From the NCBI RefSeq assembly GCF_033722355.1, contig NZ_JAWVZF010000001.1, forward strand, positions 1,785 through 65,784: 64,000 bases of DNA. Reading direction: 5' to 3'. Position numbers and translations under genes: made by a program. Each line of letters begins with the position of its first letter. Position 1 is the first letter of the stretch. The notes beneath the pieces were generated by a model, which ran no database searches, was not told where the DNA came from, and saw only the letters and a list, made by a program, of their open reading frames with translations. Positions 45 to 13,768 of this stretch are shown piece by piece. Source of the DNA: Arsukibacterium sp. Its GTDB lineage: Bacteria > Pseudomonadota > Gammaproteobacteria > Enterobacterales > Alteromonadaceae.

Positions 45-1379
45 ATGATGCAAAACCCCGATATTTATACCGTTTCCCGTTTAAACAGCGAAGTCAGGCT
101 GATTCTGGAGCTACAGTTTCAGCGGTTGTGGCTGGTGGGCGAGGTATCTAATTTCGTGCAGGCCGCATCAGGCCACTGGTATTTTTCATTAAAAGACCAG
201 GCCGCGCAGGTAAAGGTAGCGATGTTTAAACAGGCTAACCGCAATGCCTCGGTAAAACCGCAAAACGGCCAGCAGGTATTAATCCGGGCAAGGATCAGCG
301 TGTACGAGCCGCGCGGTGAGTATCAGCTGTTAGCGGAAATGATCGAGCCGGCGGGTGATGGTTTGCTTAAGCAGCAATACGAGCAGTTAAAAGCCCGCTT
401 GCAGGCCGAGGGGTTATTTGACGAAGCACGCAAAAAGCCGCTGCCGGCGCATATTAACCGGGTCGGGGTAATTACCTCGCCCACCGGTGCGGCCATCCGC
501 GATATTGTCAGTGTATTAGGGCGCCGCGCGCCGGCTATTGAAGTGATAATATACCCCTGCCTGGTCCAGGGCGAACAGGCGGCCGGCCAGCTTCGGCAGA
601 TGCTGAGCACCGCGATTCGGCGCAGTGAAGTGGATGTACTGATTATCGGCCGCGGCGGCGGTTCGCTGGAAGATTTATGGTGTTTTAATGATGAGCAACT
701 GGCCCGTGCTGTGGCGCAGTGCCCTATTCCGATTGTCAGTGCGGTCGGCCATGAAATTGATTTTGCGCTAACCGACTTTGTTGCCGATGTGCGCGCCCCT
801 ACCCCGTCGGCTGCAGCAGAGCTGGTATCGCCCGATCAAAGCCATTTACTGGAGCGTCTGCGCCGGCTGCACAGCGCGTTAGTGCAAGCGCAGCGTAGCC
901 AGTTAAACCGCTTAAAGCCAGACCTGAAGCAACTGGAGCAACGGCTGTTAGCACTGCACCCAAAACGGCGCTTACAACAACAGCAACAACGCTTAGACGA
1001 GCTGCAGCTGCGCTTGAACCGGGTGATTAGCCAGCAGCTTAGTAATGCCAAACGCCAGCAGCAGTATTTACAGCAAAGCCTGCAGCACTTATCCCCAGCC
1101 AAAGCGATTAAGCAGCAGCACGAACAATTACAACAACTACAACAACGGCTGCAACGCGGTATCAGCCAGCAGCTAAAACAGCAGCAGCAAACCCTTGGCC
1201 GCTTAAGCAACCAGCTAAACACCGTAAGCCCGCTAGCAACCTTAGCGCGCGGTTACAGTATTACCTTTGATGACAAACAACAGGTGCTAACCTCCAGCCG
1301 CCAGCTAAAAGCCGGGGATAAGGTAGCAATTAAACTGGCAGAAGGTGGTTTTGATGCCGAGGTAAAAAAGCTGAATTGA
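45..1379 (+). CDS. xseA: Exodeoxyribonuclease VII large subunit
   Basis: N-terminal OB fold (YTVSRLN...GEVSNF...SGHWYFSLKD), GVITSPTGAAIRD, RGGGSLEDLWCFN, SAVGHEIDF, APTPSAAAE and C-terminal LSPLATLARGYS-type motifs; Gln-rich coiled coil. Confidence 0.97.
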   Translation: MMQNPDIYTVSRLNSEVRLILELQFQRLWLVGEVSNFVQAASGHWYFSLKDQAAQVKVAMFKQANRNASVKPQNGQQVLIRARISVYEPRGEYQLLAEMIEPAGDGLLKQQYEQLKARLQAEGLFDEARKKPLPAHINRVGVITSPTGAAIRDIVSVLGRRAPAIEVIIYPCLVQGEQAAGQLRQMLSTAIRRSEVDVLIIGRGGGSLEDLWCFNDEQLARAVAQCPIPIVSAVGHEIDFALTDFVADVRAPTPSAAAELVSPDQSHLLERLRRLHSALVQAQRSQLNRLKPDLKQLEQRLLALHPKRRLQQQQQRLDELQLRLNRVISQQLSNAKRQQQYLQQSLQHLSPAKAIKQQHEQLQQLQQRLQRGISQQLKQQQQTLGRLSNQLNTVSPLATLARGYSITFDDKQQVLTSSRQLKAGDKVAIKLAEGGFDAEVKKLN

Positions 1380-1539
1380 GGTTCATCATTTTGATTTCTG
1401 CGGGCTAAGCTTAACGATCATGATAATGAGGAAGTGATTCAGCATCCTGAACATTCTGCAGAAACTAAAACCGGCCCAGCGACTGTTGCAGCCGCGGTTA
1501 CTGATAGGTTTATATGAAACGACAAAAAACATCATAGAA

Positions 1540-1566
1540 AAAGGCCGGTATTTGATACCGGCCTTT
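1540..1566 (-). terminator. Intrinsic terminator of the TonB receptor gene (possibly bidirectional with xseA)
   Basis: Perfect 12-bp stem AAAGGCCGGTAT-TTG-ATACCGGCCTTT, running into a T tract on the minus strand 25 nt after the receptor stop. Confidence 0.8.
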
Positions 1567-1591
1567 AGCAAAGTACGCCAGTTAAACGTTA

Positions 1592-3688
1592 TTAAAACGA
1601 TCCAACCAGACTCAGCATGGCGTTAATAGGCGCGCCCACTGTTGCCTGATGCGTCGAGTGCGCATTCGGGAAGTACAGCTCGTCTGTCAGGTTTTCAATA
1701 TGCAGCTGCAACCGAAGGTTGTGAGAAATATCATAGTATGCATAGGCGTCAACCCGGGTATAGCTTGGCAGCACCGCGCTATTGCTGCTATTGATAAAGC
1801 TTTCACCCTGGTAAGTGGCACCAATACCGACACCAAACGCATCATTTACCTGATAACTGCTCCAGACTGAAAAGGTGTTCTCAGGCAGTTCAGCCGGGGT
1901 GTTGCCGGTAGGGCCGCTGCGATTAACAATTTCACCTTCCATATAACTGTAATTTGCTGATACTGACCAGTCGCTGGTCAGCTGACCACTGAACTGCAGC
2001 TCGAAACCAGAAATTTCTGAGTCAATCACATCCAGGGTCGCCGGATCGTTATCCGCTACCTGCGGTGAGCTTTGTTCATTTTCAAACAACGCCGCCGTGA
2101 AGCTCAGCCCTTTGGCAAAATCCCATTTAATACCCAATTCCTGGTTTTTAAACGTATCAGGGTCTAACTGATTATTGCTGCCATTAATATCGGCATACTG
2201 CTCACCACTGCGGGGCAGAAATGATTCACTGTAGCTGGCATAAACAGAAACGTTCTGCTGTGGTTTATAAATAACGCCGGCGCGGGGAGAGATTTGCTCA
2301 TCGGTACGAGTTCTGTTTTCCTGCACTGACGGCAGGGCATTAAAGACTTCGATGTCAAACCGGTCAAAACGGGCACCCAGCACCAGTTGCAGTTTTTCTG
2401 ACAGCTTTATTTCATCCTGCAGATAAAATGAAAACACATCCAGATTAACCCGGGTGTCATCATTTAGATCGCTGAAGGTGGCAGTAACAACCTGGCCGTC
2501 AGCATTAAGACCGGTTAAAGCACGGAAATTTAATGGCCGCTGCACATTAAATGTCTCGCGGTCATCCATGTTGGAATCAAATACCGGATTAAAACGGTTC
2601 TGATCAGAATCAGTCTGGATAAATTCAGTACCAACAATCACAGTATGGCCAACCCGGCCTGTGTCAAATTCGCTGATAAGATTGCCTGACAGGATCAGAT
2701 TCTGCCGTAAGGTATTATCGACATAACCGTCCAGCTGAACGGTATTATTGCTCTGATTATAGCCACTGGCATAGAAATTAGAGTAGACCTTATCATAATC
2801 GCCATAATGGGCACTGAGGTTACCCTTCATCGTATCCGTGAAACGGTGTTCCAGCGCGGCTCTGAATACATGTGCCTGTAGCTCATGATAATTATTTTCA
2901 GGATCGGCAAACACGATATCTTTTAACGCGGCCACTGGCTTGCCATCGCTGCCGGTTGGAATACCACGGTCAATAAAGCGCTGATGATCAACATATTCAT
3001 AAGACAAATCGACAGCGGTATCTGAGCTTAATTCAATTCTTGCTGTTGGGTTAAAGCCGTAACGATCGCCATCGTAGAAGTCACGATGATTATCAAGTTG
3101 TTCAACCATCGCATTAATACGCACTGCAGAGGTGTCGCTGGTAGCAAAATTAGTGTCAATTTCCGCATTGATACCACCAAAAGTATTCAGCTGGCCTTTG
3201 TAGCCGGTAAATGCCTGACCAAGCTGCGCTTTTTTCGATACCCGGTTTAAGATGCCGCCGGTGCCGCCCCGCCCGAATAATAACGCATTAGGCCCCCGCA
3301 AAATTTCCACTTGCTCAATATTGTACAGAGCGCGGTAGTACTGAACATCGTCACGGTTGCCATCAATATAAAAGTCAGCGGTTGAGCGGACGCCGCGAAA
3401 TACTACTGAATCGCGATGGCCCTCGCCCTGTGAAGTATTTACGCCGGGGGTGTAGTCAATAATCTCGCCGATACTGGTATAGCCGCGCTCAGTGATTTGC
3501 TCGGCAGTGATGATTGATAAGCTTTGCGGCACGTCAATGATCGGAGTCGGTGTCTTTACCGAATTTGATTCATTAATAGACAGGTATTGCCCTTCAACAA
3601 CGATTCTTTCTACGTCCTTAATATCCTGAGCTACGGCGGTGTTGCTTAAGATCACCGCAGCAGCAATGCTCGTTAGTTTGAATTTCAA
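1592..3688 (-). CDS. TonB-dependent (siderophore-type) outer membrane receptor
   Basis: Signal peptide, TonB-box-like ERIVVEG, plug motifs (DVPQSLSII, IRG-like VFRG, YNIEQVEILRGPNALLFGRGGTGGILNRVSK), C-terminal NLTDELYF and terminal Phe; TTG start after a GGAG RBS. Confidence 0.93.
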   Translation of the reverse strand: MKFKLTSIAAAVILSNTAVAQDIKDVERIVVEGQYLSINESNSVKTPTPIIDVPQSLSIITAEQITERGYTSIGEIIDYTPGVNTSQGEGHRDSVVFRGVRSTADFYIDGNRDDVQYYRALYNIEQVEILRGPNALLFGRGGTGGILNRVSKKAQLGQAFTGYKGQLNTFGGINAEIDTNFATSDTSAVRINAMVEQLDNHRDFYDGDRYGFNPTARIELSSDTAVDLSYEYVDHQRFIDRGIPTGSDGKPVAALKDIVFADPENNYHELQAHVFRAALEHRFTDTMKGNLSAHYGDYDKVYSNFYASGYNQSNNTVQLDGYVDNTLRQNLILSGNLISEFDTGRVGHTVIVGTEFIQTDSDQNRFNPVFDSNMDDRETFNVQRPLNFRALTGLNADGQVVTATFSDLNDDTRVNLDVFSFYLQDEIKLSEKLQLVLGARFDRFDIEVFNALPSVQENRTRTDEQISPRAGVIYKPQQNVSVYASYSESFLPRSGEQYADINGSNNQLDPDTFKNQELGIKWDFAKGLSFTAALFENEQSSPQVADNDPATLDVIDSEISGFELQFSGQLTSDWSVSANYSYMEGEIVNRSGPTGNTPAELPENTFSVWSSYQVNDAFGVGIGATYQGESFINSSNSAVLPSYTRVDAYAYYDISHNLRLQLHIENLTDELYFPNAHSTHQATVGAPINAMLSLVGSF

Positions 3689-3812
3689 TTTACATTCTCC
3701 ACATCTTTAATTGCGTTTTTATGATTCTGAGGTATCGCTGATGTCGGCCAGACCGGAAAGTATCTCTGCTGTCCCGGTGTTGAGGTGCCAACCCGTTTTT
3801 ATTTGCGGCAAT

Positions 3813-3831
3813 GGTAATACGAATAGTTATT
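3813..3831. promoter_or_regulatory. Putative Fur box upstream of the TonB receptor
   Basis: GGTAATACGAATAGTTATT matches 12/19 of GATAATGATAATCATTATC; lies 125 nt upstream of a siderophore-type receptor. Confidence 0.45.
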
Positions 3832-3986
3832 AATTGCACGCTCATTGCGGAAATTTTTTGTCTGAAATAAGAATTAGTCTTGATTGCCAGCAGTAACCGG
3901 CTGATTATTTCGTCGCCGGCCAGGAACTTGATAAGATGCTGCCTGATTAATAACAATGCATCTGCATCAGGTAGTGGCAAAAACTC

Positions 3987-4559
3987 ATGTCCCACAATAC
4001 CATCACAATAAACCAAAAGCGGCAGCCACTGGACCACCTGCAATCGGTCTGGTTATTCGGCTATGGCTCGTTAATTTATAAAGCTGATTTCCCTTTTCTC
4101 AAGCGTAAGCCCGCTTGTATTTATGGCTGGCAGCGCCGCTTCTGGCAGGGCTCGCATGATCATCGCGGTACGCCGGAGGCACCGGGGCGGGTGCTGACGC
4201 TGACAGAAGCAACGGGCGAACGCTGCGCCGGTATGGCCTATCAGGTTACGCCTGATACCTTTGAGCATCTGGACCACCGTGAGAAAAATGGTTACCTGCG
4301 GGTATTTACTGAACTGCACTGGCTGGACGAACCGGGCCGGCAGGAGGGCCTGGTGTATTTAGCCGGCGCTGATAATGACGCTTATCTGGGGCCGGCCAGT
4401 GACGAGGCAATCGCTGCTCATATTGCTGCAAGCACAGGGCCCAGTGGCCCTAACAGTGAATACTTACTAAAACTGGCTGAGGCGCTGCGGCAAATGAATG
4501 AGCATGATGAGCATGTATTTGCAATCGAGCGCGAGCTGCTAAAATTAGTAAATCGGTAA
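3987..4559 (+). CDS. chaC: Gamma-glutamylcyclotransferase, ChaC family
   Basis: VWLFGYGSLIYK, FWQGSHDHRGTPEAPGRVLTL, LDHREKNGY and GPSGPNSEYL motifs. Confidence 0.9.
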   Translation: MSHNTITINQKRQPLDHLQSVWLFGYGSLIYKADFPFLKRKPACIYGWQRRFWQGSHDHRGTPEAPGRVLTLTEATGERCAGMAYQVTPDTFEHLDHREKNGYLRVFTELHWLDEPGRQEGLVYLAGADNDAYLGPASDEAIAAHIAASTGPSGPNSEYLLKLAEALRQMNEHDEHVFAIERELLKLVNR

Positions 4560-4578
4560 GCTAGCGGAACTGCAGAGG

Positions 4579-5259
4579 ATGTCAGACTCAACAGGTCAGG
4601 TATCAAAAAAAGATATCGTTACGGCACTTTTAGATAACTATGGCGAAACCTACGCACAGGAGCTGTCTGTCAAGCTGGAGAAGGGTACGCCGGCACCGCT
4701 GTTTCAGTGGTTATGTGCCTGCGTGCTTTTCAGTGCCAGAATCAGTAACGATATAGCCAAAGATGCGCTGCGGGCGCTTAAAAAAAGCGGCTGGACCACC
4801 GCAGATAAAATGGCGAAGAGCAACTGGAAGGACCGGGTAAAAACCCTGAATGACGCTGGTTACGCCCGTTTTGACGAGCGCACAGCCACGATGTTGGGTG
4901 ACGTTGCAAACGCCATGCAGGAACACTACAACGGTGATTTACGTAAACTACGTAAGGCAGCGGATCGCGACCCGCAACAGCAGCGCAAGCTGCTGAAGAA
5001 ATTTAAAGGCTTAGGCGATACCGGCGTTGATATTTTTATGCGGGAAGTGCAAGCAATCTGGCAAGAAATTGCACCTTTTGCTGATAAAAAAGCGCTGAAA
5101 GCTGCCGGAAAATTAGAGTTAGCAGACGATGCCGAGCAACTGGCAGAGCTGGTCAGCGATAATAACGAATTAGCAAAGCTATGCACCGCGCTGGTCCGGC
5201 TGGACTTCTCAGGTGACTATGATGAGCTGAGAGAAAAAGCACGGAATGGCGGTTCCTGA
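4579..5259 (+). CDS. HhH-GPD superfamily (endonuclease III-like) protein lacking the 4Fe-4S motif
   Basis: PLFQWLCACVLFSARIS helix, HhH hairpin LKKFKGLGDTGVDIF, downstream PFAD; no C-terminal Cys cluster. Confidence 0.7.
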   Translation: MSDSTGQVSKKDIVTALLDNYGETYAQELSVKLEKGTPAPLFQWLCACVLFSARISNDIAKDALRALKKSGWTTADKMAKSNWKDRVKTLNDAGYARFDERTATMLGDVANAMQEHYNGDLRKLRKAADRDPQQQRKLLKKFKGLGDTGVDIFMREVQAIWQEIAPFADKKALKAAGKLELADDAEQLAELVSDNNELAKLCTALVRLDFSGDYDELREKARNGGS

Positions 5260-5299
5260 GCAATGGCGGCAGATAACCATTATTCTCTGTGCGACTTAA

Positions 5300-5824
5300 T
5301 CACGATACCCGGCCAAATTCTTTGGCGACGTCTTTCATGCTGTGATAGGTCTTGTCGCTGAACTGCTTGATAATGGCCATTTGCTCATCATTGGCGTTAT
5401 CACGGGCAAATTGTTTAAGCTCATCGCCACTGGCCGGAAAATCGATACCGGCAAAAACGCTGGCAATATTGGCTGCCGATGCCACTTCCATCGCCCGGGC
5501 GCCGCCTTTTTTACTGGGCTGATCGTCCGGTTTTTCCTGATGGCTGCGCAGACCGCCAAAGGCCCTGCTAACCTCTGCTGCGTCACGGTATTGCTGCTCA
5601 GGCAGCGACTTGATAATCTCAGCAATGTCGCCGGCACGCTCATCATTGTTATCAATGGCGTCTAACAGCTCATCGCGGGAAGCCGGAAACTCAATGCCTT
5701 TCAGGGCTTTTTCAAGATCGGCGGCAGAAATGGCCTGCTTTGGGTGGGACGTCAGCATATGCCGCTCCAGCCTGGATTTCTGCTCAAAGGTGGCATCGCA
5801 AATATCACATGAAAACTGAGCCAT
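5300..5824 (-). CDS. C2H2 zinc finger + two DUF2795-like repeats, uncharacterised
   Basis: FSCDICDATFEQKSRLERHMLTSH = F-x-C-x2-C-x3-F-x5-L-x2-H-x4-H; internal repeats LKGIEFPASRDEL and FAGIDFPASGDEL. Confidence 0.8.
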   Translation of the reverse strand: MAQFSCDICDATFEQKSRLERHMLTSHPKQAISAADLEKALKGIEFPASRDELLDAIDNNDERAGDIAEIIKSLPEQQYRDAAEVSRAFGGLRSHQEKPDDQPSKKGGARAMEVASAANIASVFAGIDFPASGDELKQFARDNANDEQMAIIKQFSDKTYHSMKDVAKEFGRVS

Positions 5825-5825
5825 A

Positions 5826-6821
5826 TTATCTTACCTCCCCAACTGCTTTTTCCAGATCGGCCATCGTTTTGAACTTACGCTCAGGCAGCTCATTTAATAC
5901 CTCAAGAATGTCATCACTGGCATCATGTTCTTCGGCAAACTCCACCACTTCGTCTTTATTTCTGGGAAAATCAATGCCTTTCAGCGCCTTTGCAATGCCG
6001 GCTGCGGAAGCACTGTCCAATGCTGCTTTACCACCACGCCGGCCGCCCTTGCTGGGATCACCACGTGGCTCTTTCGGCTCAAGCTTAAAGTCAGGCGTGG
6101 TAAACTTGCCGTCTTCAATTGAGGCACCGGGCCAGTTTTTTGGTTTTAATCCCAGAGTGTCAAAAAGTGCAGGCTTGCCACTGATGTCAGCTTCGGTTTC
6201 AGCCAAATCATCGTGGGCCCCAATTAATAACAATTGGGCATTTTCGTAATCCAGCAGCCTGGTATCGCTGATATCAATCCAGCGTTTGTCAGCAAATTTT
6301 TCTTTCAGCTGTTGCGGATAGTCAGGTTTCTGATCGGGAAAACCCGGGGCATCAATATCAGGGTTTTTGACCGAAATAACAAAACTGGCCTCGGCTAATA
6401 TCCCAAGCTCTTTTTGAGCTTTGCCCGGTTTATCAGGCTGATGCAGCCGGTAGGCCAGCCTTGTGCTGTCATGGTGTTCAAATATCACGTAGCGGCCAGC
6501 GCCGGCCGGAATCGCTTCACCCTGTTGCCGTTCGCCTTCGGTTGAGGTGTCATATTCTAACGGACCAAGCTCGTTGCCAATCTCTGTTGGGCTGGCCGTC
6601 AGGTAATTCATCATCCATTCTCTTTGGGTCGATTTGGCTGAGCCGTCGCTGATGTCTGGCAGGCGCTTTTTGCCGATAACAAATAGCCGCGCCTTATCAT
6701 CGTTATCTGCCACCATCACCAGATAAAAGCGTTGCACATCATCAATGCTGTTAACCTGTTCGCTGTCAATTTTGCTGCGGTAGAAAAAATAAATATCGCC
6801 CTGTTCAAGGTTTGCTGTCAT
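5826..6821 (-). CDS. Uncharacterised protein with a C-terminal DUF2795-like domain
   Basis: 331-aa ORF with a strong RBS (AGGAGG); C-terminal LKGIDFPRNKDEVVEFA...LPERKFKTMADL; stop lies 1 nt before the next start. Confidence 0.8.
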   Translation of the reverse strand: MTANLEQGDIYFFYRSKIDSEQVNSIDDVQRFYLVMVADNDDKARLFVIGKKRLPDISDGSAKSTQREWMMNYLTASPTEIGNELGPLEYDTSTEGERQQGEAIPAGAGRYVIFEHHDSTRLAYRLHQPDKPGKAQKELGILAEASFVISVKNPDIDAPGFPDQKPDYPQQLKEKFADKRWIDISDTRLLDYENAQLLLIGAHDDLAETEADISGKPALFDTLGLKPKNWPGASIEDGKFTTPDFKLEPKEPRGDPSKGGRRGGKAALDSASAAGIAKALKGIDFPRNKDEVVEFAEEHDASDDILEVLNELPERKFKTMADLEKAVGEVR

Positions 6822-7091
6822 AACGCTGACCTCCTGCTGGCATCAGTCAGAATGTGGGTTCGTGCTGTTAAAACACGGCTTCGTTAATAGCAAAACAGCA
6901 TTCAATAAACATACCAGAACGAACAGAACAAACCGCAGGGTGATAAATCCATTAAAGCGCTGCAGAGCGGGCAAAGCAGGAGCCCGCCCTTGAAAAGACA
7001 GAACGCCGGTAACGCCGATGCGTGTATTATGAAAATATTGCCACCTTAAAGCATTTTTTACCGGTGGCAATCAAAGGGTGTCATCGCGCGA

Positions 7092-10000
7092 TTAGGGGCG
7101 GCCGGCCTCTGCCTGCTGTTTTAACGAGACTTTTTGCCTGCGCCGCCGAAACAGGTTTTTAAGATCTTCCAGGATCAGATAGAAGCAAGGTACCAGGATC
7201 AACGTAATTAAGGTGGCGAACAGCACCGCAAAACTCAGCGATATTGCCATTGGAATAACAAACTGTGCTTGCAGGCTGGTTTCAAACATTATTGGCACTA
7301 AGCCAAAGAAGGTGGTTAGTGACGTTAACAAGATAGCCCGAAAGCGCATACTGCCGGCAGAGATAATACTGTCTCTTAATGATAAACCTCTGTCCCGGGC
7401 CTGGTTAACATAATCGGTAAACACCAGACTGTCGTTAATGACTACCCCAGCCGCGGCAATCATGCCGAAGAAGGAGAACAGCGACAAGTCAAAGCCAAGG
7501 AAGAAGTGTGCCCATAATGCCCCTGTCATGCCAAATGGGATCACTGACATAATGATCACCGGCTGACTGTAGCTTTTCAGCGGAATCGCCAACAGGATAT
7601 AAACCAACAGCAAACCGGCTATCATATACAACAACATTTGGTTGCGTTGTTTTTGCTGCTCTTCTATCTGCCCACCCAGTTCCGATTTAACCCCGGGAAA
7701 CCGTTCCAGTAAATCTGGCATAATATCGGTTTTTACCAGCTTCACTACCTCAGACGTTGTCACCTGCTGTTGATCAACACTGGCTTCAATCCGCACATTT
7801 CTGAAACCGGCCTCGCGGTTAATCCGTGAAATTCCGGGTGACTCGGTAATATCAGCAACATCACCCAGCATCACAAAGTCTCCGCTGGGCAGTTTCAGGC
7901 GGGTGCGCTGAAGCGACGCCACCTGTTGCCGTTGTTCTTTCGGATACCGCACCATAACCCGCACTTCATCACCGTCGCGGATCATTCGCTGCGCTTCTAT
8001 ACCATAAAAACTGTAACCCACCTGCTGCGCCAGCCAGGTAGGTGTTAAACCCAGCTGATGGGCCAGCGGCTTTAATTCCAGGTTAAGCTCTTTGCTGCCT
8101 GAATCGATGCTGGAGCCTAAGTCATAAACACCGGGTATATTGCTTAATTCGCTGATTAGCGCATGGCCGGCCGCGTTTAGCTGATCTATGTCGGTACCGT
8201 ACAAACGATAGCCCAGTTCCCGCTGCTCGCCGCCACTGAATAAATCATCCCTGACCTGAATTGTTCGCACCCCGGCCAGTTCAGGTAAGCTTTCCCGCCA
8301 GCGGCGCCCCAGTTCAAAGGCTTTAATAGGCCGCTCTTCTTCGTCCACCAGCGTGACTAACACGGTACCACTGGTCTGATTGTTCAGCCAGGCCATCACA
8401 TGTTTGATCATCGGTTTGCCGCTTTGCTCTAACACCAACGTTTCCTGCTGATAAACAAGTTGCTCAAGCTGTTGCAGAATCGCCAGGCTTTGCTGCTCAG
8501 AGGCGTTCTGATGCATTTCGAAGCGTATTTCCGGATAGTCATGCGGTACAGGCGGGGTCATTACCGTACGGATATGGTTGGCAGAAATTAAGCCAAAGCC
8601 GCTGAGCAGGATGCCAAAAAACACCCCCAAAGTGGCATAACGATGCGCCATGCAAGCTTGCAAAAACGGTTGATAGCGCCCTTCAATAAAGCTCTGAAAG
8701 CCCTTGTTAAAACGCATACGCCAGCCATTTTCCGGCACCGGTTTTAATTTCGCATGCGCTAAATGAGCTGGCAATATCAGTTTTGATTCAACCAGGCTGA
8801 AAAACAAACAACACACGACCACAATAGAAATAACTTTAAATTCATTGGCCTCTATACTATTGCCCAGCATAAACGGAGCGAATACCGCCATGGTAGTTAA
8901 TACACCAAAGGTTGCCGGGGTGGCTACCCGCTGCGCGCCGCGGATAATATTGTCAATACTATGGCCTTGCAGCTCAGTTTCATGATAAGCACTTTCGCCT
9001 ATAACAATAGCGTCATCGACGACAATACCGAGCACCATAATAAACGCGAATAAACTGATAATATTGATAGTGACACCGGCGAAAGGCATCAGCCAGATAG
9101 CCCCCAGAAAGGCAATGGGTAAACCGAGCATAACCCAGAAAGCGACTTTGAAGCGTAAAAACAGCATCAGCATTAAAAACACCAGTACCGCCCCCTGCAG
9201 CAGGTTGCTCCACATCATATTCAAACGGCCATTCAGGTAATATGTCATATCGACCAGGCTGTGCAGCTGGTAGTCACCCTGCAATTGCTTATTTTTAAAC
9301 TCAACATATTGTTGTACGCTGGCAGCAACATCAGGCAACGACTGCGTTGCTGAGGCTTTCACTGCCATAAATGCTGCCGGTTTGCCGTCGTAACGCATAT
9401 AGTTAATACGCTCTTCAAAACCGTCATAGATGTTAGCGATATCAGCCAACCGGATCTGTTCGCCCTGCGGCCCGGTTATTATGGGCAGCGCGGCAAATTC
9501 ATCAGCCCGATAGGCCCGCTGTTCAGAGCGGATGGTAATCATGCCGGCGTCAGCGCGGATCATCCCGGCAGATACATTGTCAGAATGCTGCGCAATCGCC
9601 CTGCTGATATCCTGTAAACTGATGTTGTAACGCTCAAGTGTCGCCGGCTCAATTTCAATACCTATTTCCCAGGCCGGCATTGCATCAAAATCAACAAAAC
9701 TAATATTCTCCAGTTGCAGCAATTCGTTCTTGATTTGCCGTCCCATTGCTTTTAGCGCCAGTTGATCCTCAGTTCCGGTCAGCACCAGATTTACCGCGTC
9801 CTGGCGCCACTCCACCTGATAAATTGTTAGCGGCTCCATCGCGCTGGGGAAGGTACTGATGGCATCCATTTTCAGTTTTACCTGATCCAGCCGGGATGAA
9901 ATATCGGTGCCGGGCACCAGCTCAATACTGACCCGGCCACCACCGCGCCAGGCATTGCTGCGATAACGCTTAATACCTTCAATATCGGTCAGGGCTTCTT

Positions 10001-10220
10001 CAATTTTAATCAGGATGCCTTCTTCAATTTCCTGAGGCGCAGCGCCGCGAAAAGTGGCATTAACATGAATATAATTGACTTCTACTGAGGGAAACATTTG
10101 CCGCTGCATGGTGGCATAGGTAACCAGCCCCATAACGACAATAAAAACCATCAGCAAATTAGCGGCAACGCTGTTACGGGCAAACCAGGCAATAATGCCT
10201 TTATCAGGATTATAAGGCAT
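7092..10220 (-). CDS. RND efflux transporter permease (AcrB/AcrD/AcrF family)
   Basis: 1042 aa with two periplasmic loops; GIVVDDAIVIGE (TM4), GVVINDSLV (TM10), RFRAILLTSLTT motifs. Confidence 0.93.
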   Translation of the reverse strand: MPYNPDKGIIAWFARNSVAANLLMVFIVVMGLVTYATMQRQMFPSVEVNYIHVNATFRGAAPQEIEEGILIKIEEALTDIEGIKRYRSNAWRGGGRVSIELVPGTDISSRLDQVKLKMDAISTFPSAMEPLTIYQVEWRQDAVNLVLTGTEDQLALKAMGRQIKNELLQLENISFVDFDAMPAWEIGIEIEPATLERYNISLQDISRAIAQHSDNVSAGMIRADAGMITIRSEQRAYRADEFAALPIITGPQGEQIRLADIANIYDGFEERINYMRYDGKPAAFMAVKASATQSLPDVAASVQQYVEFKNKQLQGDYQLHSLVDMTYYLNGRLNMMWSNLLQGAVLVFLMLMLFLRFKVAFWVMLGLPIAFLGAIWLMPFAGVTINIISLFAFIMVLGIVVDDAIVIGESAYHETELQGHSIDNIIRGAQRVATPATFGVLTTMAVFAPFMLGNSIEANEFKVISIVVVCCLFFSLVESKLILPAHLAHAKLKPVPENGWRMRFNKGFQSFIEGRYQPFLQACMAHRYATLGVFFGILLSGFGLISANHIRTVMTPPVPHDYPEIRFEMHQNASEQQSLAILQQLEQLVYQQETLVLEQSGKPMIKHVMAWLNNQTSGTVLVTLVDEEERPIKAFELGRRWRESLPELAGVRTIQVRDDLFSGGEQRELGYRLYGTDIDQLNAAGHALISELSNIPGVYDLGSSIDSGSKELNLELKPLAHQLGLTPTWLAQQVGYSFYGIEAQRMIRDGDEVRVMVRYPKEQRQQVASLQRTRLKLPSGDFVMLGDVADITESPGISRINREAGFRNVRIEASVDQQQVTTSEVVKLVKTDIMPDLLERFPGVKSELGGQIEEQQKQRNQMLLYMIAGLLLVYILLAIPLKSYSQPVIIMSVIPFGMTGALWAHFFLGFDLSLFSFFGMIAAAGVVINDSLVFTDYVNQARDRGLSLRDSIISAGSMRFRAILLTSLTTFFGLVPIMFETSLQAQFVIPMAISLSFAVLFATLITLILVPCFYLILEDLKNLFRRRRQKVSLKQQAEAGRP

Positions 10221-10223
10221 GAT

Positions 10224-11366
10224 TTACTCCGCTTTTACCAGCTCACTGTCGCTTTGTGCCGTGCGCACCACCATACCCGGCTGCGGGAAATTGGGTACCG
10301 TTAAGATAAGCTGCTGACCATCAGTTAGCCCGGCTTTGACATAAGCTGATTTACCAATCTGGCGGATAACTTCGACCTCTTGCTGAGCCATGGTCATATC
10401 CGGTTGCAACAGCCAGACTTTACCGTCGGATAATGCGTCTTGCGGAATGGTGTAAAGCTTATCTTCAACCCGCCCGGCCAGACGCACTTCAACATATTGG
10501 CCAAACCGGATCACCGGTTGCTGGCTTCGCACCGCATAAGGGTCGTCAAGTTGCACCACCAGATGGCTCATTCGGGTCTGGCTGTCAACCACTCCCAAAT
10601 CACGTACCACTTTAGCTTCGCGACTAAACTGATCAGTTCTCAGCTGAGCCGGTATACCTGCGCGCTCTGCAGGTAAATAAGCCAGATCGAAACTGGCAAC
10701 AGGGACATACAACTCTGCCTGCTCTACGCTGTAGAGTTCGCCTAACGCAGTGCCAGTGCTTACCACCTGCCCTAAGCCAATATTGCGATTGACCACCAGG
10801 GCATCGTAAGGGGCGGTAATTCGGGTTCGCTCTAAATCACGTTGCGCTTTCTGCAGGGATGCCTGAGCCGATTTTAACGCCGCTTCTGCACTTAGCAGCT
10901 GAGGCTGGCGCAATGCCAGAGCGGTTATTTGATCACGGGACAAATGCCTTAATTCCTGCTCTGCCACCCGGGCTTGCGCCTGCTCCTGTGAAAGCGCCGA
11001 TTCGGCACTGGCAACGGCCGCCTGCGCGCTGAGTAAGGCAACCTGATAATCGGAATCATCCAGTTGTACCAGCACCGTGCCTTTGGCAACAACGCCACCG
11101 GCGATAAAGTTCGGATCTAAATTGATAACCCGTCCCGACACTTCAGGTGTTAAGGTGGTTTTCTCTTTGGGTTTCACTTCTGCCCAGAGTTGCAGCTCGA
11201 AACGATGCGGCTGGGCCTGCAATGTTTGTGTAACGACCAGCGGGGCCAGCGATCCTGACTTATCTTTTTGCAGTGGGGGGGTCGCTGTAGCCTGTATCGC
11301 AATAAATACCCCTATTGCCAACCCGAATACGCCTGCCGCAAACAGCCCTTTTTGCCAAGTTTTCAT
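10224..11366 (-). CDS. RND efflux periplasmic adaptor (membrane fusion protein)
   Basis: N-terminal TM anchor, lipoyl halves (PEVSGRV...GGVVAKGTVLVQLD; ITAPYDALV), alpha hairpin; 3 nt upstream of the permease. Confidence 0.92.
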   Translation of the reverse strand: MKTWQKGLFAAGVFGLAIGVFIAIQATATPPLQKDKSGSLAPLVVTQTLQAQPHRFELQLWAEVKPKEKTTLTPEVSGRVINLDPNFIAGGVVAKGTVLVQLDDSDYQVALLSAQAAVASAESALSQEQAQARVAEQELRHLSRDQITALALRQPQLLSAEAALKSAQASLQKAQRDLERTRITAPYDALVVNRNIGLGQVVSTGTALGELYSVEQAELYVPVASFDLAYLPAERAGIPAQLRTDQFSREAKVVRDLGVVDSQTRMSHLVVQLDDPYAVRSQQPVIRFGQYVEVRLAGRVEDKLYTIPQDALSDGKVWLLQPDMTMAQQEVEVIRQIGKSAYVKAGLTDGQQLILTVPNFPQPGMVVRTAQSDSELVKAE

Positions 11367-11467
11367 TAATCCGTTCCCACATTGCCGGTAAGCTCTTACC
11401 TTAGCAAAGGCTACGTAAAAAGACAGCGGGAAACTGTTAGCAAATATGAACTACTACAGCAGAGAAA

Positions 11468-11497
11468 GGGATTGCATAGTTTTGGCTATCCAATCCC
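11468..11497 (-). terminator. Putative terminator of the decarboxylase/der transcript
   Basis: GGGATTG-C-ATAG...CTAT-C-CAATCCC hairpin followed by TTTCTCT on the minus strand, 15 nt after the stop. Confidence 0.6.
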
Positions 11498-11512
11498 GGT
11501 AACTGGTTGCGG

Positions 11513-13768
11513 TTACTCTTTTACTACATCGATAAAATACTGCGTCTCACCGGCGATAGTTTCCCGTACCAGACCATGAACGTCGGTTTCAAAGCCCGGG
11601 AACTGGCCGTTGAAGGCCCGGGTAAACTTCAGGTAATTGACAATAGTCGGGTTAAAGCGCTCACCGGGCACCATTAGCGGTATACCTGGTGGGTAGGGTG
11701 TTACCAGCATGGCGGTAACCCGGCCGGTAATATCGTCAATCGATACCCGTTCAATTTCCCGGTGCGCCATTTTAGCCCAGGCGTCTGCCGGGGTCATGGC
11801 CGTTTCAATGGTTGACAGATACATTTCAGTAGTCACTTTCGCCACGTCGAACTGCCGGTAAATATTGTGAATTTGCAGACACAGATCGCGCAGACCCACT
11901 TTTTCATAACGCGGGTTTTTAGCCACAAACTCGGGCATCACCCGCCACATCGGCAGGTTCTGATCATAGTCGTCTTTAAACTGCTGCAGCTCAGTGACCA
12001 TTGAATTCCAGCGGCCTTTGGTAATGCCGATGGTAAACATGATAAAGAACGAGTAGAGCCCGGTTTTTTCAATAATGATGCCATGCTCAGCCAGATATTT
12101 ACTGACGATGGTAGCCGGTATGCCCTGCTCGTCAAACTGCCCCAGCATATTCAGGCCCGGGGTGATAATGGTCGCTTTAATCGGGTCAAGGATATTAAAA
12201 CCCGACTCTATCGGCCCGAAACCATGCCAGCTGTCAGTGGCGTGCAACACCCAGTTATCCCGTTCGCCAATACCTTCATCCGGCAAATTCTCAGGGCCCC
12301 AGACTTTAAACCACCAGTCGTCATCCCCAAATTCGGCATCCACTTTGCGCATGGCACGGCGAAAATCCATCGCTTCAAACAAACTTTCTTCCACCAGGGA
12401 AGTGCCACCCGGCGGTTCCATCATCGCAGCAGCGACATCACAACTGGCGATAATGGCATACTGTGGGCTGGTGGAACTGTGCATTAAATACGACTCGTTA
12501 AAGCGATGCGTATCTAAATTACGGTTAGTGGCGTTTTGCACCAGAATTTGCGACGCCTGCGATAAGCCGGCCAGTAACTTATGGGTAGACTGTGTCGCAA
12601 ATACCAGGGTTTCATCAGAGCGGGGGCGGTCTTTACCAATGGCATGCATATTTTTGTAAAAATCGTGAAAGCTGGCATGTGGCAACCAGGCTTCATCAAA
12701 ATGCAGCGTGTCGATGCTTGATCCCAGCTGCTGTTTGATTTCCTCGACATTATACAAAATACCATCATAGGTACTCTGGGTTAACGTTAAAATACGCGGC
12801 TTTTTGTTTTTAGCATTACGGGCAAAGGGGTTAGCTTCTATTTTTTTAGCAATGGCCTCGGCTGAAAACTCCGCTTTCGGAATAGGGCCAATAATGCCGT
12901 AATGGTTACGCGTTGGCATTAAGAATACCGGAATAGCCCCGGTCATAATAATCGAGTGTAAAATCGACTTATGGCAATTGCGGTCGACGACTACGATATC
13001 GCCCGGCGCCACCACGGAGTGCCAGACCATTTTATTCGAGGTCGAGGTACCGTTGGTGACAAAAAACAAATGGTCGGCATTAAAAATGCGGGCAGCGTTT
13101 TGCTCGCTTTGTGCCACCGGTCCGGTGTGATCTAATAACTGGCCTAATTCATCAACCGAATTACAGACATCGGCCCGCAGCATATTTTCGCCGAAGAACT
13201 GATGAAACATCTGGCCAACCGGGCTCTTTAAAAAAGCCACGCCACCAGAGTGGCCCGGGCAGTGCCAGGAATAAGAGCCGTCAGAGGCATAATCCATTAA
13301 CGCATTAAAAAACGGTGGCGCTAACGCGTCCAGATATTTCTGGGCTTCACGGATAATGTGGCGGGCGACAAATTCCGGTGTATCTTCAAACATATGAATA
13401 AACCCATGCAGCTCACGCAGCACATCGTTCGGAATATGCCGGCTGGTGCGGGTTTCACCGTACAAAAATATCGGAATGTCGGCATTGCGCTTACGCACTT
13501 CTTTAACAAAGGCCCGAAGCTCGGTCAGCGCGGTGTTAACATCGGCATCGCTGCCACTGCCAAATTCCTCATCGTCTATTGATAAAATAAAGCACGAGGC
13601 ACGGCTGGCCTGCTGGGCAAAGGCCGTTAAATCAACATAACTGGTGTAGCCAACCACTTCAAAGCCATGACTACCAATGGCCTGGGCTAAGTCACGAATA
13701 CCTGAGCCGGAAATATTTTCTGAACGGAAATCTTCATCAATTACAATAACCGGAAAACGAAATTTCAT
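11513..13768 (-). CDS. PLP-dependent lysine/arginine/ornithine decarboxylase (fold type I, wing domain)
   Basis: N-terminal wing domain, WHCPGHSGG, FVTNGTSTSN, DRNCHKS, HFDEAW, TQSTHK (PLP lysine), PYPPGIP. Confidence 0.93.
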   Translation of the reverse strand: MKFRFPVIVIDEDFRSENISGSGIRDLAQAIGSHGFEVVGYTSYVDLTAFAQQASRASCFILSIDDEEFGSGSDADVNTALTELRAFVKEVRKRNADIPIFLYGETRTSRHIPNDVLRELHGFIHMFEDTPEFVARHIIREAQKYLDALAPPFFNALMDYASDGSYSWHCPGHSGGVAFLKSPVGQMFHQFFGENMLRADVCNSVDELGQLLDHTGPVAQSEQNAARIFNADHLFFVTNGTSTSNKMVWHSVVAPGDIVVVDRNCHKSILHSIIMTGAIPVFLMPTRNHYGIIGPIPKAEFSAEAIAKKIEANPFARNAKNKKPRILTLTQSTYDGILYNVEEIKQQLGSSIDTLHFDEAWLPHASFHDFYKNMHAIGKDRPRSDETLVFATQSTHKLLAGLSQASQILVQNATNRNLDTHRFNESYLMHSSTSPQYAIIASCDVAAAMMEPPGGTSLVEESLFEAMDFRRAMRKVDAEFGDDDWWFKVWGPENLPDEGIGERDNWVLHATDSWHGFGPIESGFNILDPIKATIITPGLNMLGQFDEQGIPATIVSKYLAEHGIIIEKTGLYSFFIMFTIGITKGRWNSMVTELQQFKDDYDQNLPMWRVMPEFVAKNPRYEKVGLRDLCLQIHNIYRQFDVAKVTTEMYLSTIETAMTPADAWAKMAHREIERVSIDDITGRVTAMLVTPYPPGIPLMVPGERFNPTIVNYLKFTRAFNGQFPGFETDVHGLVRETIAGETQYFIDVVKE

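Follow-up and report, generated by a model that had tools for sequence, protein, structure and literature searches.

The window analysed here, the whole stretch of 64,000 nucleotides from Arsukibacterium sp. (contig NZ_JAWVZF010000001.1), contains two adjacent genes, here called C and B, which almost certainly form a conserved, tightly coupled two-gene operon that excludes the neighbouring gene A. C encodes a core domain followed by a Gly-rich basic linker and a DUF2795 domain, and B encodes a single C2H2 zinc finger and two further DUF2795 domains. An original prediction, made from the sequence of this locus, had joined the three genes in one module and had proposed that the shared domain links a zinc finger protein to a larger domain. 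The treatment of the two DUF2795-bearing genes as one functional unit, and of their shared domain as the link, was borne out; the membership of gene A was not. For a mechanism in which the DUF2795 domains tether the two proteins and the complex acts on nucleic acid under stress, a probability of about 0.4 is estimated.

Conservation and coupling of C and B

C has 790 full-length homologues that share 47-85% identity. A scan of a genome collection for C yielded 195 loci, 80 of which were kept for neighbourhood counts. The kept loci belong to Halomonadaceae, Microbulbifer, Bowmanella, Thiotrichales, Bdellovibrionales, Puniceicoccaceae, a Methanosarcinales metagenome-assembled genome (MAG) and many Nitrososphaeraceae. 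B was found directly downstream of C, on the same strand, in 48 of the 57 loci in which C bears the DUF2795 tail, and one further locus has B at another place within it. Tailed C genes adjoined by B occur in Gammaproteobacteria, Bdellovibrionales, Verrucomicrobiota, Methanosarcinales and Nitrososphaeraceae. Among the loci with sufficient downstream DNA, 21 were scored as tail-less; B is missing in 19 of these, and the two with B nearby look like tailed genes with a split alignment. Thus B adjoins C only where C bears the tail, with none of the 19 clearly tail-less loci carrying it. In bacterial loci the stop codon of C and the start codon of B mostly overlap or lie 1-2 nt apart, and at least five C-B fusion proteins were found in divergent protein clusters (P0088, P0272, P0313, P0315 and P0248). 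The fusions and the start/stop overlap suggest a 1:1 physical partnership of the two proteins. When all open reading frames (ORFs) of the 80 loci were clustered, no genes other than C and B proved recurrent, the rest being lineage-specific synteny.

Genomes in which a tailed C has no adjoining B contain none at another site either. In a Nitrososphaeraceae MAG with a tailed C gene that lacks an adjoining B, a B-like frame interrupted by TAG was observed on another contig (G051:C2:3033-3374). This frame may be a pseudogene.

By habitat, the carriers comprise halophilic and alkaliphilic organisms, ammonia-oxidising archaea from soil, fungi that live in soil and an amoeba. The C-B pair is a chromosomal, sporadic accessory module: neither a set of 72,556 plasmids nor one of 50,697 phage records gave a tblastn match. 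A role in anti-phage defence, which had been suggested from the sequence, or in another mobile-element function, would be in keeping with the patchy occurrence of the pair within families and with its place between xseA and a lysine-decarboxylase-like gene, where gene content is variable. However, the sole PADLOC match was a chance-level one to Csm2 (E=0.026), PHROGs gave none, and the genes around the 80 loci have housekeeping functions, with neither integrases nor defence genes recurring. Such a function is regarded as effectively excluded.

The core domain of C

C was modelled with AlphaFold2 (AF2) from a 29-sequence alignment, with a mean predicted local distance difference test score (pLDDT) of 86.6. 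The core domain, residues 1-245, is beta-rich in this model, with about 11 strands. No Pfam or NCBIfam match was obtained for the core of the window protein, of diverged members or of the long eukaryotic members, and no PDB relative was found by sequence or profile search. Foldseek searches against the PDB and BFVD gave a best E of 0.0066, with all template modelling (TM) scores ≤0.35. Assignment to the CYTH or triphosphate tunnel metalloenzyme proteins was rejected, strand 1 being LEQGDIYFFYR and not ExExK, with no Pfam match at E≤10. Fold hints of this kind, to CYTH and VTC-like viral proteins (probability ≤0.33, TM ≤0.34), were dropped, as was a match to PH1012 (probability 0.35, TM ≤0.34), an entry whose own CYTH membership is unsure.

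The family defined by this domain is large. A core profile matched 2,247 representative clusters at E≤1e-3 and 573 at ≤1e-30, most of them stand-alone proteins of about 250 aa. A subset bears the Gly-rich basic linker and the DUF2795 tail, and B occurs only with these tailed versions. Eukaryotic members were found in Balamuthia, Rhizophagus, Geosiphon, Mortierella, chytrids and a green alga. These homologues carry N-terminal extensions of 130-330 residues, which are disordered and highly charged (K+R ~0.2, D+E ~0.2). A likeness of the extensions to histone-H1-like basic tails was considered and weakened on inspection, as they are of mixed charge and net basic in only ~3 of 15. The residues E6, R45, W69, Y111 and N153 of the core are invariant, and R15, R31, K52, Q136 and E144 are nearly so. 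These polar and aromatic residues look like a specific site rather than part of a molecular shield.

Two chytrid gene models (P0373 and P0377) encode long proteins in which the core is joined to UDP-glycosyltransferase segments and, in one of them, also to actin segments. The match to the core is split into two in these models, which probably arose by the merging of intron-containing genes in the annotation and not by genuine fusion. In a Thermoproteota MAG (L079:1-6407) a tail-less core homologue (2932-3723) is flanked by a RadA-like recombinase gene (1561-2571) on one side and by a Ku-like gene (5394-6407) on the other. These neighbours were named by eye from their translations, and the arrangement is a single, non-recurring case.

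DUF2795 subtypes and glycine-rich linkers

PF11387 (DUF2795) matches B over two stretches with 81.8 bits and C over residues 272-323 with 60 bits, at a cutoff of 25. This agrees with the three copies of one small domain that had been recognised in the original prediction, and the (F/V)G(G/R/E)(L/V)(R/S) endings of the copies and the PSKKGG and PSKGGRRGGK linkers are likewise present in the translations. The three copies represent three subtypes, with identities of 45-55% within a type and 30-33% between types, that are kept across domains of life; the C-tail subtype shares 55% identity across taxa versus 32-33% to both B copies. In the AF2 models each domain is a small four-helix unit with two short beta bridges. 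As fold relatives only weak EF-hand-like and Topo VI-B-like Foldseek matches were returned, which were not accepted, and no PDB relative of the family was found by profile search. The domains score well above the family threshold and form the same small helical unit as the single-domain PF11387 proteins. Unlike in those proteins, the domain is an appendage here, present once on a novel core of 245 aa and twice on a zinc finger protein, and three anciently separated subtypes are kept in one operon. In the literature searched, DUF2795 is mentioned only within protein lists, without a function; a DUF2795 protein was reported to make up 0.37% of the proteome of Nitrosospira multiformis (PMC5960693).

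The linkers of both proteins are basic, that of C with a median isoelectric point (pI) of 10. In C the pLDDT falls below 50 at residues 254-262, and G259, G260, G263 and G264 are invariant in 29 homologues. In B it is below 50 at residues 96-113, where P103, S104, G107 and G108 are nearly invariant. The short Gly-rich basic motifs SKKGG and SKGGRRGGK, placed in disordered hydrophilic segments, resemble those of the KGG-repeat family (YciG/YmdF/GsiB, PF10685), which is associated with stress. The KGG label given earlier to these proteins could nevertheless not be upheld: the PF10685 hidden Markov model (HMM) matched neither B nor C at E≤0.1, tandem repeats of ~20 aa were not found, and each linker has a single motif that joins folded domains.

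The linkers bear on the view that C and B are protectants resembling hydrophilins or late embryogenesis abundant (LEA) proteins, which would act as molecular shields or cation buffers and have no specific nucleic-acid target, their finger and DUF2795 domains serving folding or self-assembly. The KGG-like Gly-rich linkers, the acidic and hydrophilic character of the proteins, the highly charged disordered extensions of the eukaryotic homologues and the saline or dry soil habitats of the carriers would all fit. The core is, however, a well-ordered fold with many invariant polar residues, unlike hydrophilins, the Pfam KGG family is unmatched, and the extreme conservation of the finger helix argues for a specific ligand. 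This explanation is considered unlikely.

The zinc finger of B

PF00096 was matched by B residues 4-27 with 26.2 bits (cutoff 25.2). Its zinc ligands are C6, C9, H22 and H27, and its core residues are F13 and L19/Y19; in 21 B homologues no variation occurs at the four ligands, at F13 or at S17. In the PDB, a profile of B matched eukaryotic fingers, such as those of PRDM9 and ZBTB20, with E down to 2e-11. In the AF2 model two strands (residues 4-5 and 12-13) precede a helix (residues 16-25), in the beta-beta-alpha order, and Foldseek placed it on solved fingers with a root-mean-square deviation of 0.7-1.5 A and a probability up to 0.97. Spacing, F/L core and fold are exactly those of classical C2H2 fingers, among them the CTCF, Zif268 and BCL6 fingers on which the model superposes. 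In contrast to these, the finger of B is single, lacks a tandem array or TGEKP linker, and is fused to DUF2795. The prokaryotic fingers of the Ros/MucR type presumably differ by a shorter spacing and extra helices, neither of which is present in B. The positions that usually contact bases (Q15, S17 and R18) show little or no variation over the whole range between Gammaproteobacteria and Nitrososphaeraceae. This near-invariance of the finger between bacteria and archaea implies a conserved ligand.

Upstream region of C

In 25 further gammaproteobacterial loci a T(C/T)TGCTA box precedes C by 50-114 nt. In Halomonadaceae (loci L014-L041, e.g. L017:7900-7950) C is preceded, at this distance of 50-114 nt, by TTTGCA-N12-(C)TCTGCTA, and each of these genomes has essentially no other copy of the full motif. 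The two-block motif may be a private promoter or operator; a genome search with it revealed no co-regulated genes. In Arsukibacterium the TGCTA core is retained, in the form TGCTATTAA or TGCTATGTT. For the box upstream of C (TG-C-TATTAA) we infer only that it could be an extended -10 element with C at -13, which we take to be a trait of RpoS-type promoters.

Occurrence essentially once per genome would be expected of a private operator or promoter, and B has a classical C2H2 finger. It has thus to be considered whether B is a dedicated transcription factor of its own operon (autoregulation) or of other genes, without a stoichiometric C partner and with DUF2795 as a sensor or dimerisation domain. 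The residues with which the finger would make contact are the same in archaea, Arsukibacterium and Halomonas, whereas the DNA upstream differs, and one finger reads only ~3 bp. Moreover, the start/stop overlap and the repeated fusions suggest that B is a physical partner of C, and B was never found without a tail-bearing C. This role for B is judged to be quite improbable.

Proposed role of the pair

The hierarchy from core to tailed core to tailed core with B, in which B depends on the tail, points to docking by DUF2795. In the proposed mechanism the three anciently diverged DUF2795 subtypes would dock on one another and thereby tether the core domain of C to B. The near-invariant single finger of B, together with the short basic GG linkers, would direct the complex to a conserved target, most probably a nucleic acid (nucleoid DNA or structured RNA). 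The complex would probably be used under osmotic, dry or stationary-phase stress. A role of C-B in stress or desiccation is plausible; we infer it from the habitats of the carriers, the Gly-rich hydrophilic linkers, the promoter features and the high abundance of a DUF2795 protein in Nitrosospira (PMC5960693). Transcription of the pair is indicated by RNA contigs from metatranscriptomes, which cover C and B and of which one spans the C/B junction of a Chromohalobacter locus.

Several observations weigh against this mechanism. A single C2H2 finger can bind protein or RNA too. The DUF2795 domains, and B and C as a whole, are acidic (median pI 4.8-5.7), which argues against binding of DNA by DUF2795 itself. 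Eight of the 57 tailed C genes do without B. No conserved neighbour around C-B suggests a pathway in the 80 loci. The module is also rare even in its main families: of the 25 Arsukibacterium genomes 3 have it, and of the 121 from Halomonadaceae 8 do. The RNA contigs, all of them assembled ones, indicate transcription as such, and the run of the junction contig (X6) is only guessed to be RNA.

A more far-reaching version of the mechanism is held to be doubtful. According to it, the core would be a new fold and family with a ligand-binding or catalytic site, present in bacteria, archaea and early-diverging eukaryotes. It would be brought to nucleic acid by the finger and the DUF2795 adaptor in prokaryotes or by the charged disordered tails in eukaryotes, with DUF2795 as a heterotypic docking module and the pair as nucleoid- or RNA-associated stress machinery.

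DUF2795, which is catalogued without a function, would gain from these results a concrete role that can be put to the test, that of joining two partner proteins. The core domain defines a large unnamed family with no Pfam model and no similar solved structure, which has members among bacteria, archaea and eukaryotes, chiefly in organisms of saline settings and soil. C-B is also a rare case of a single eukaryote-type C2H2 finger that is near-invariant between bacteria and archaea. RefSeq and UniRef name the C and B proteins only as "DUF2795 domain-containing" or "C2H2-type domain-containing". The finding is rated as lying outside the known kinds, because neither the core domain nor the operon is described in the domain libraries, the PDB or the literature searched. 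If the proposed action on nucleic acid under stress is true, the pair would be a new component of the protection or regulation of genetic material in halophiles and soil microbes; if it is false, C-B would still be a clean two-protein system for learning the function of DUF2795.

Locus layout

The features of the locus are listed in Table 1. The ORF positions agree with the tight operon described earlier, in which C and B are separated by 1 nt and which converges on gene A across 40 nt. The guanine-plus-cytosine content across the A-B-C region is 0.49-0.51, the same as in the flanks, in line with the host-like value near 50% that had been noted.

Table 1 Features of the C-B locus and the adjoining gene A (positions in the window)
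Feature	Position	Strand	Basis
Gene A, 226 aa, HhH-GPD-like; adjoining gene, outside the module	4579..5259	+	ORF
Gene B, 174 aa: C2H2 zinc finger, DUF2795, Gly-rich linker, DUF2795	5300..5824	-	ORF, Pfam
B residues 115-174, DUF2795 copy b	5303..5482	-	Pfam, subtype analysis
B residues 94-114, disordered linker with PSKKGG	5483..5545	-	pLDDT, alignment
B residues 31-93, DUF2795 copy a, invariant LP...YRDAAE	5546..5734	-	Pfam, alignment, subtype analysis
B residues 4-27, classical C-x2-C-x12-H-x4-H zinc finger, FSCDICDATFEQKSRLERHMLTSH	5744..5815	-	PF00096, PDB profile, AF2
Gene C, 331 aa: novel N-terminal domain, Gly-rich basic linker, DUF2795	5826..6821	-	ORF
C residues 269-331, DUF2795 copy, C-tail subtype	5829..6017	-	PF11387, subtype analysis
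C residues 246-268, disordered basic linker with invariant GG..GG, DPSKGGRRGGKAA	6018..6086	-	pLDDT, alignment
C residues 1-245, beta-rich core domain	6087..6821	-	AF2 model
Upstream of C: TTTGCTATTAA box (6884-6894) and AGGAGG Shine-Dalgarno sequence (6830-6835)	6830..6894	-	sequence

The interval from xseA (45-1379) to the lysine-decarboxylase-like gene (11513-13768), window positions 45-13768, varies within the genus. In the window it also holds a TonB-dependent receptor gene (1592-3688), gene A and an AcrB/membrane-fusion efflux pair (7092-11366). Two congeners have neither the receptor, nor A, nor the efflux pair in this interval, and carry two membrane-protein genes instead.

Gene A, a neighbour of the pair

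Gene A is a chance neighbour of the C-B pair. It starts 20 nt after chaC on the plus strand, opposite to C-B. A sigma-70-like site, TTTGCA-16-TAAAAT with an upstream TG, lies at 4518-4545 (+) inside the 3' end of chaC and, judged by its sequence, could be the own promoter of gene A. Of the 80 C-encoding loci from other species, scanned to 8 kb on either side, none has a homologue of gene A, and the gene is present in 1 of 41 related genomes. In the two other Arsukibacterium genomes that carry C-B the pair occupies the same interval, between the lysine-decarboxylase-like gene and chaC, and gene A is not at this syntenic locus, where the two membrane-protein genes take its place. The adjacency across the convergent gap, and the hairpin and Asp described below, would speak for the three-gene module of the original prediction, in which the DUF2795 pair works with an HhH-GPD-like glycosylase in DNA protection or repair. 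The neighbourhood comparison shows that A does not travel with C-B, and A lies on the opposite strand directly after chaC; the three-gene module is, like the defence function, effectively excluded.

The A proteins are a family of their own, with 632 matches at ~55% identity that are annotated as "endonuclease III" or "hypothetical". The HhH-GPD label given to A was too firm. An HhH hairpin (KGLGDTGVDIF) is present, followed after ~25 residues by the invariant Asp of a PFAD motif, and K143, G144, D147, G149, F153, P166, F167 and D169 are invariant in 15 A homologues. All scores are below the curated thresholds: 19 bits for PF22175 Ogg-HhH (cutoff 27), 24 bits for NCBIfam PRK01229 (cutoff 183) and 17.5 bits for TIGR03252 (cutoff 136.5). 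PF00730 was not among the Pfam and NCBIfam matches of A, PF22175 was touched by only 4 of the 15 homologues, and a search of the PDB with a profile of the A family found no glycosylase. The hairpin, the Asp and the weak Ogg-type matches recall the HhH-GPD glycosylases (Ogg2/AGOG, endonuclease III), from which A differs in lacking both the Lys of the lyase position and the Cys4 Fe-S motif, in its low scores and in being unlinked to C-B.

Three A homologues were examined in their genomic context, and all three settings are unrelated. One homologue (L095:2869-3759) adjoins a Mn-catalase gene and another (L093) adjoins a type I restriction system and an Mrr-like gene, so that the contexts of A are heterogeneous.

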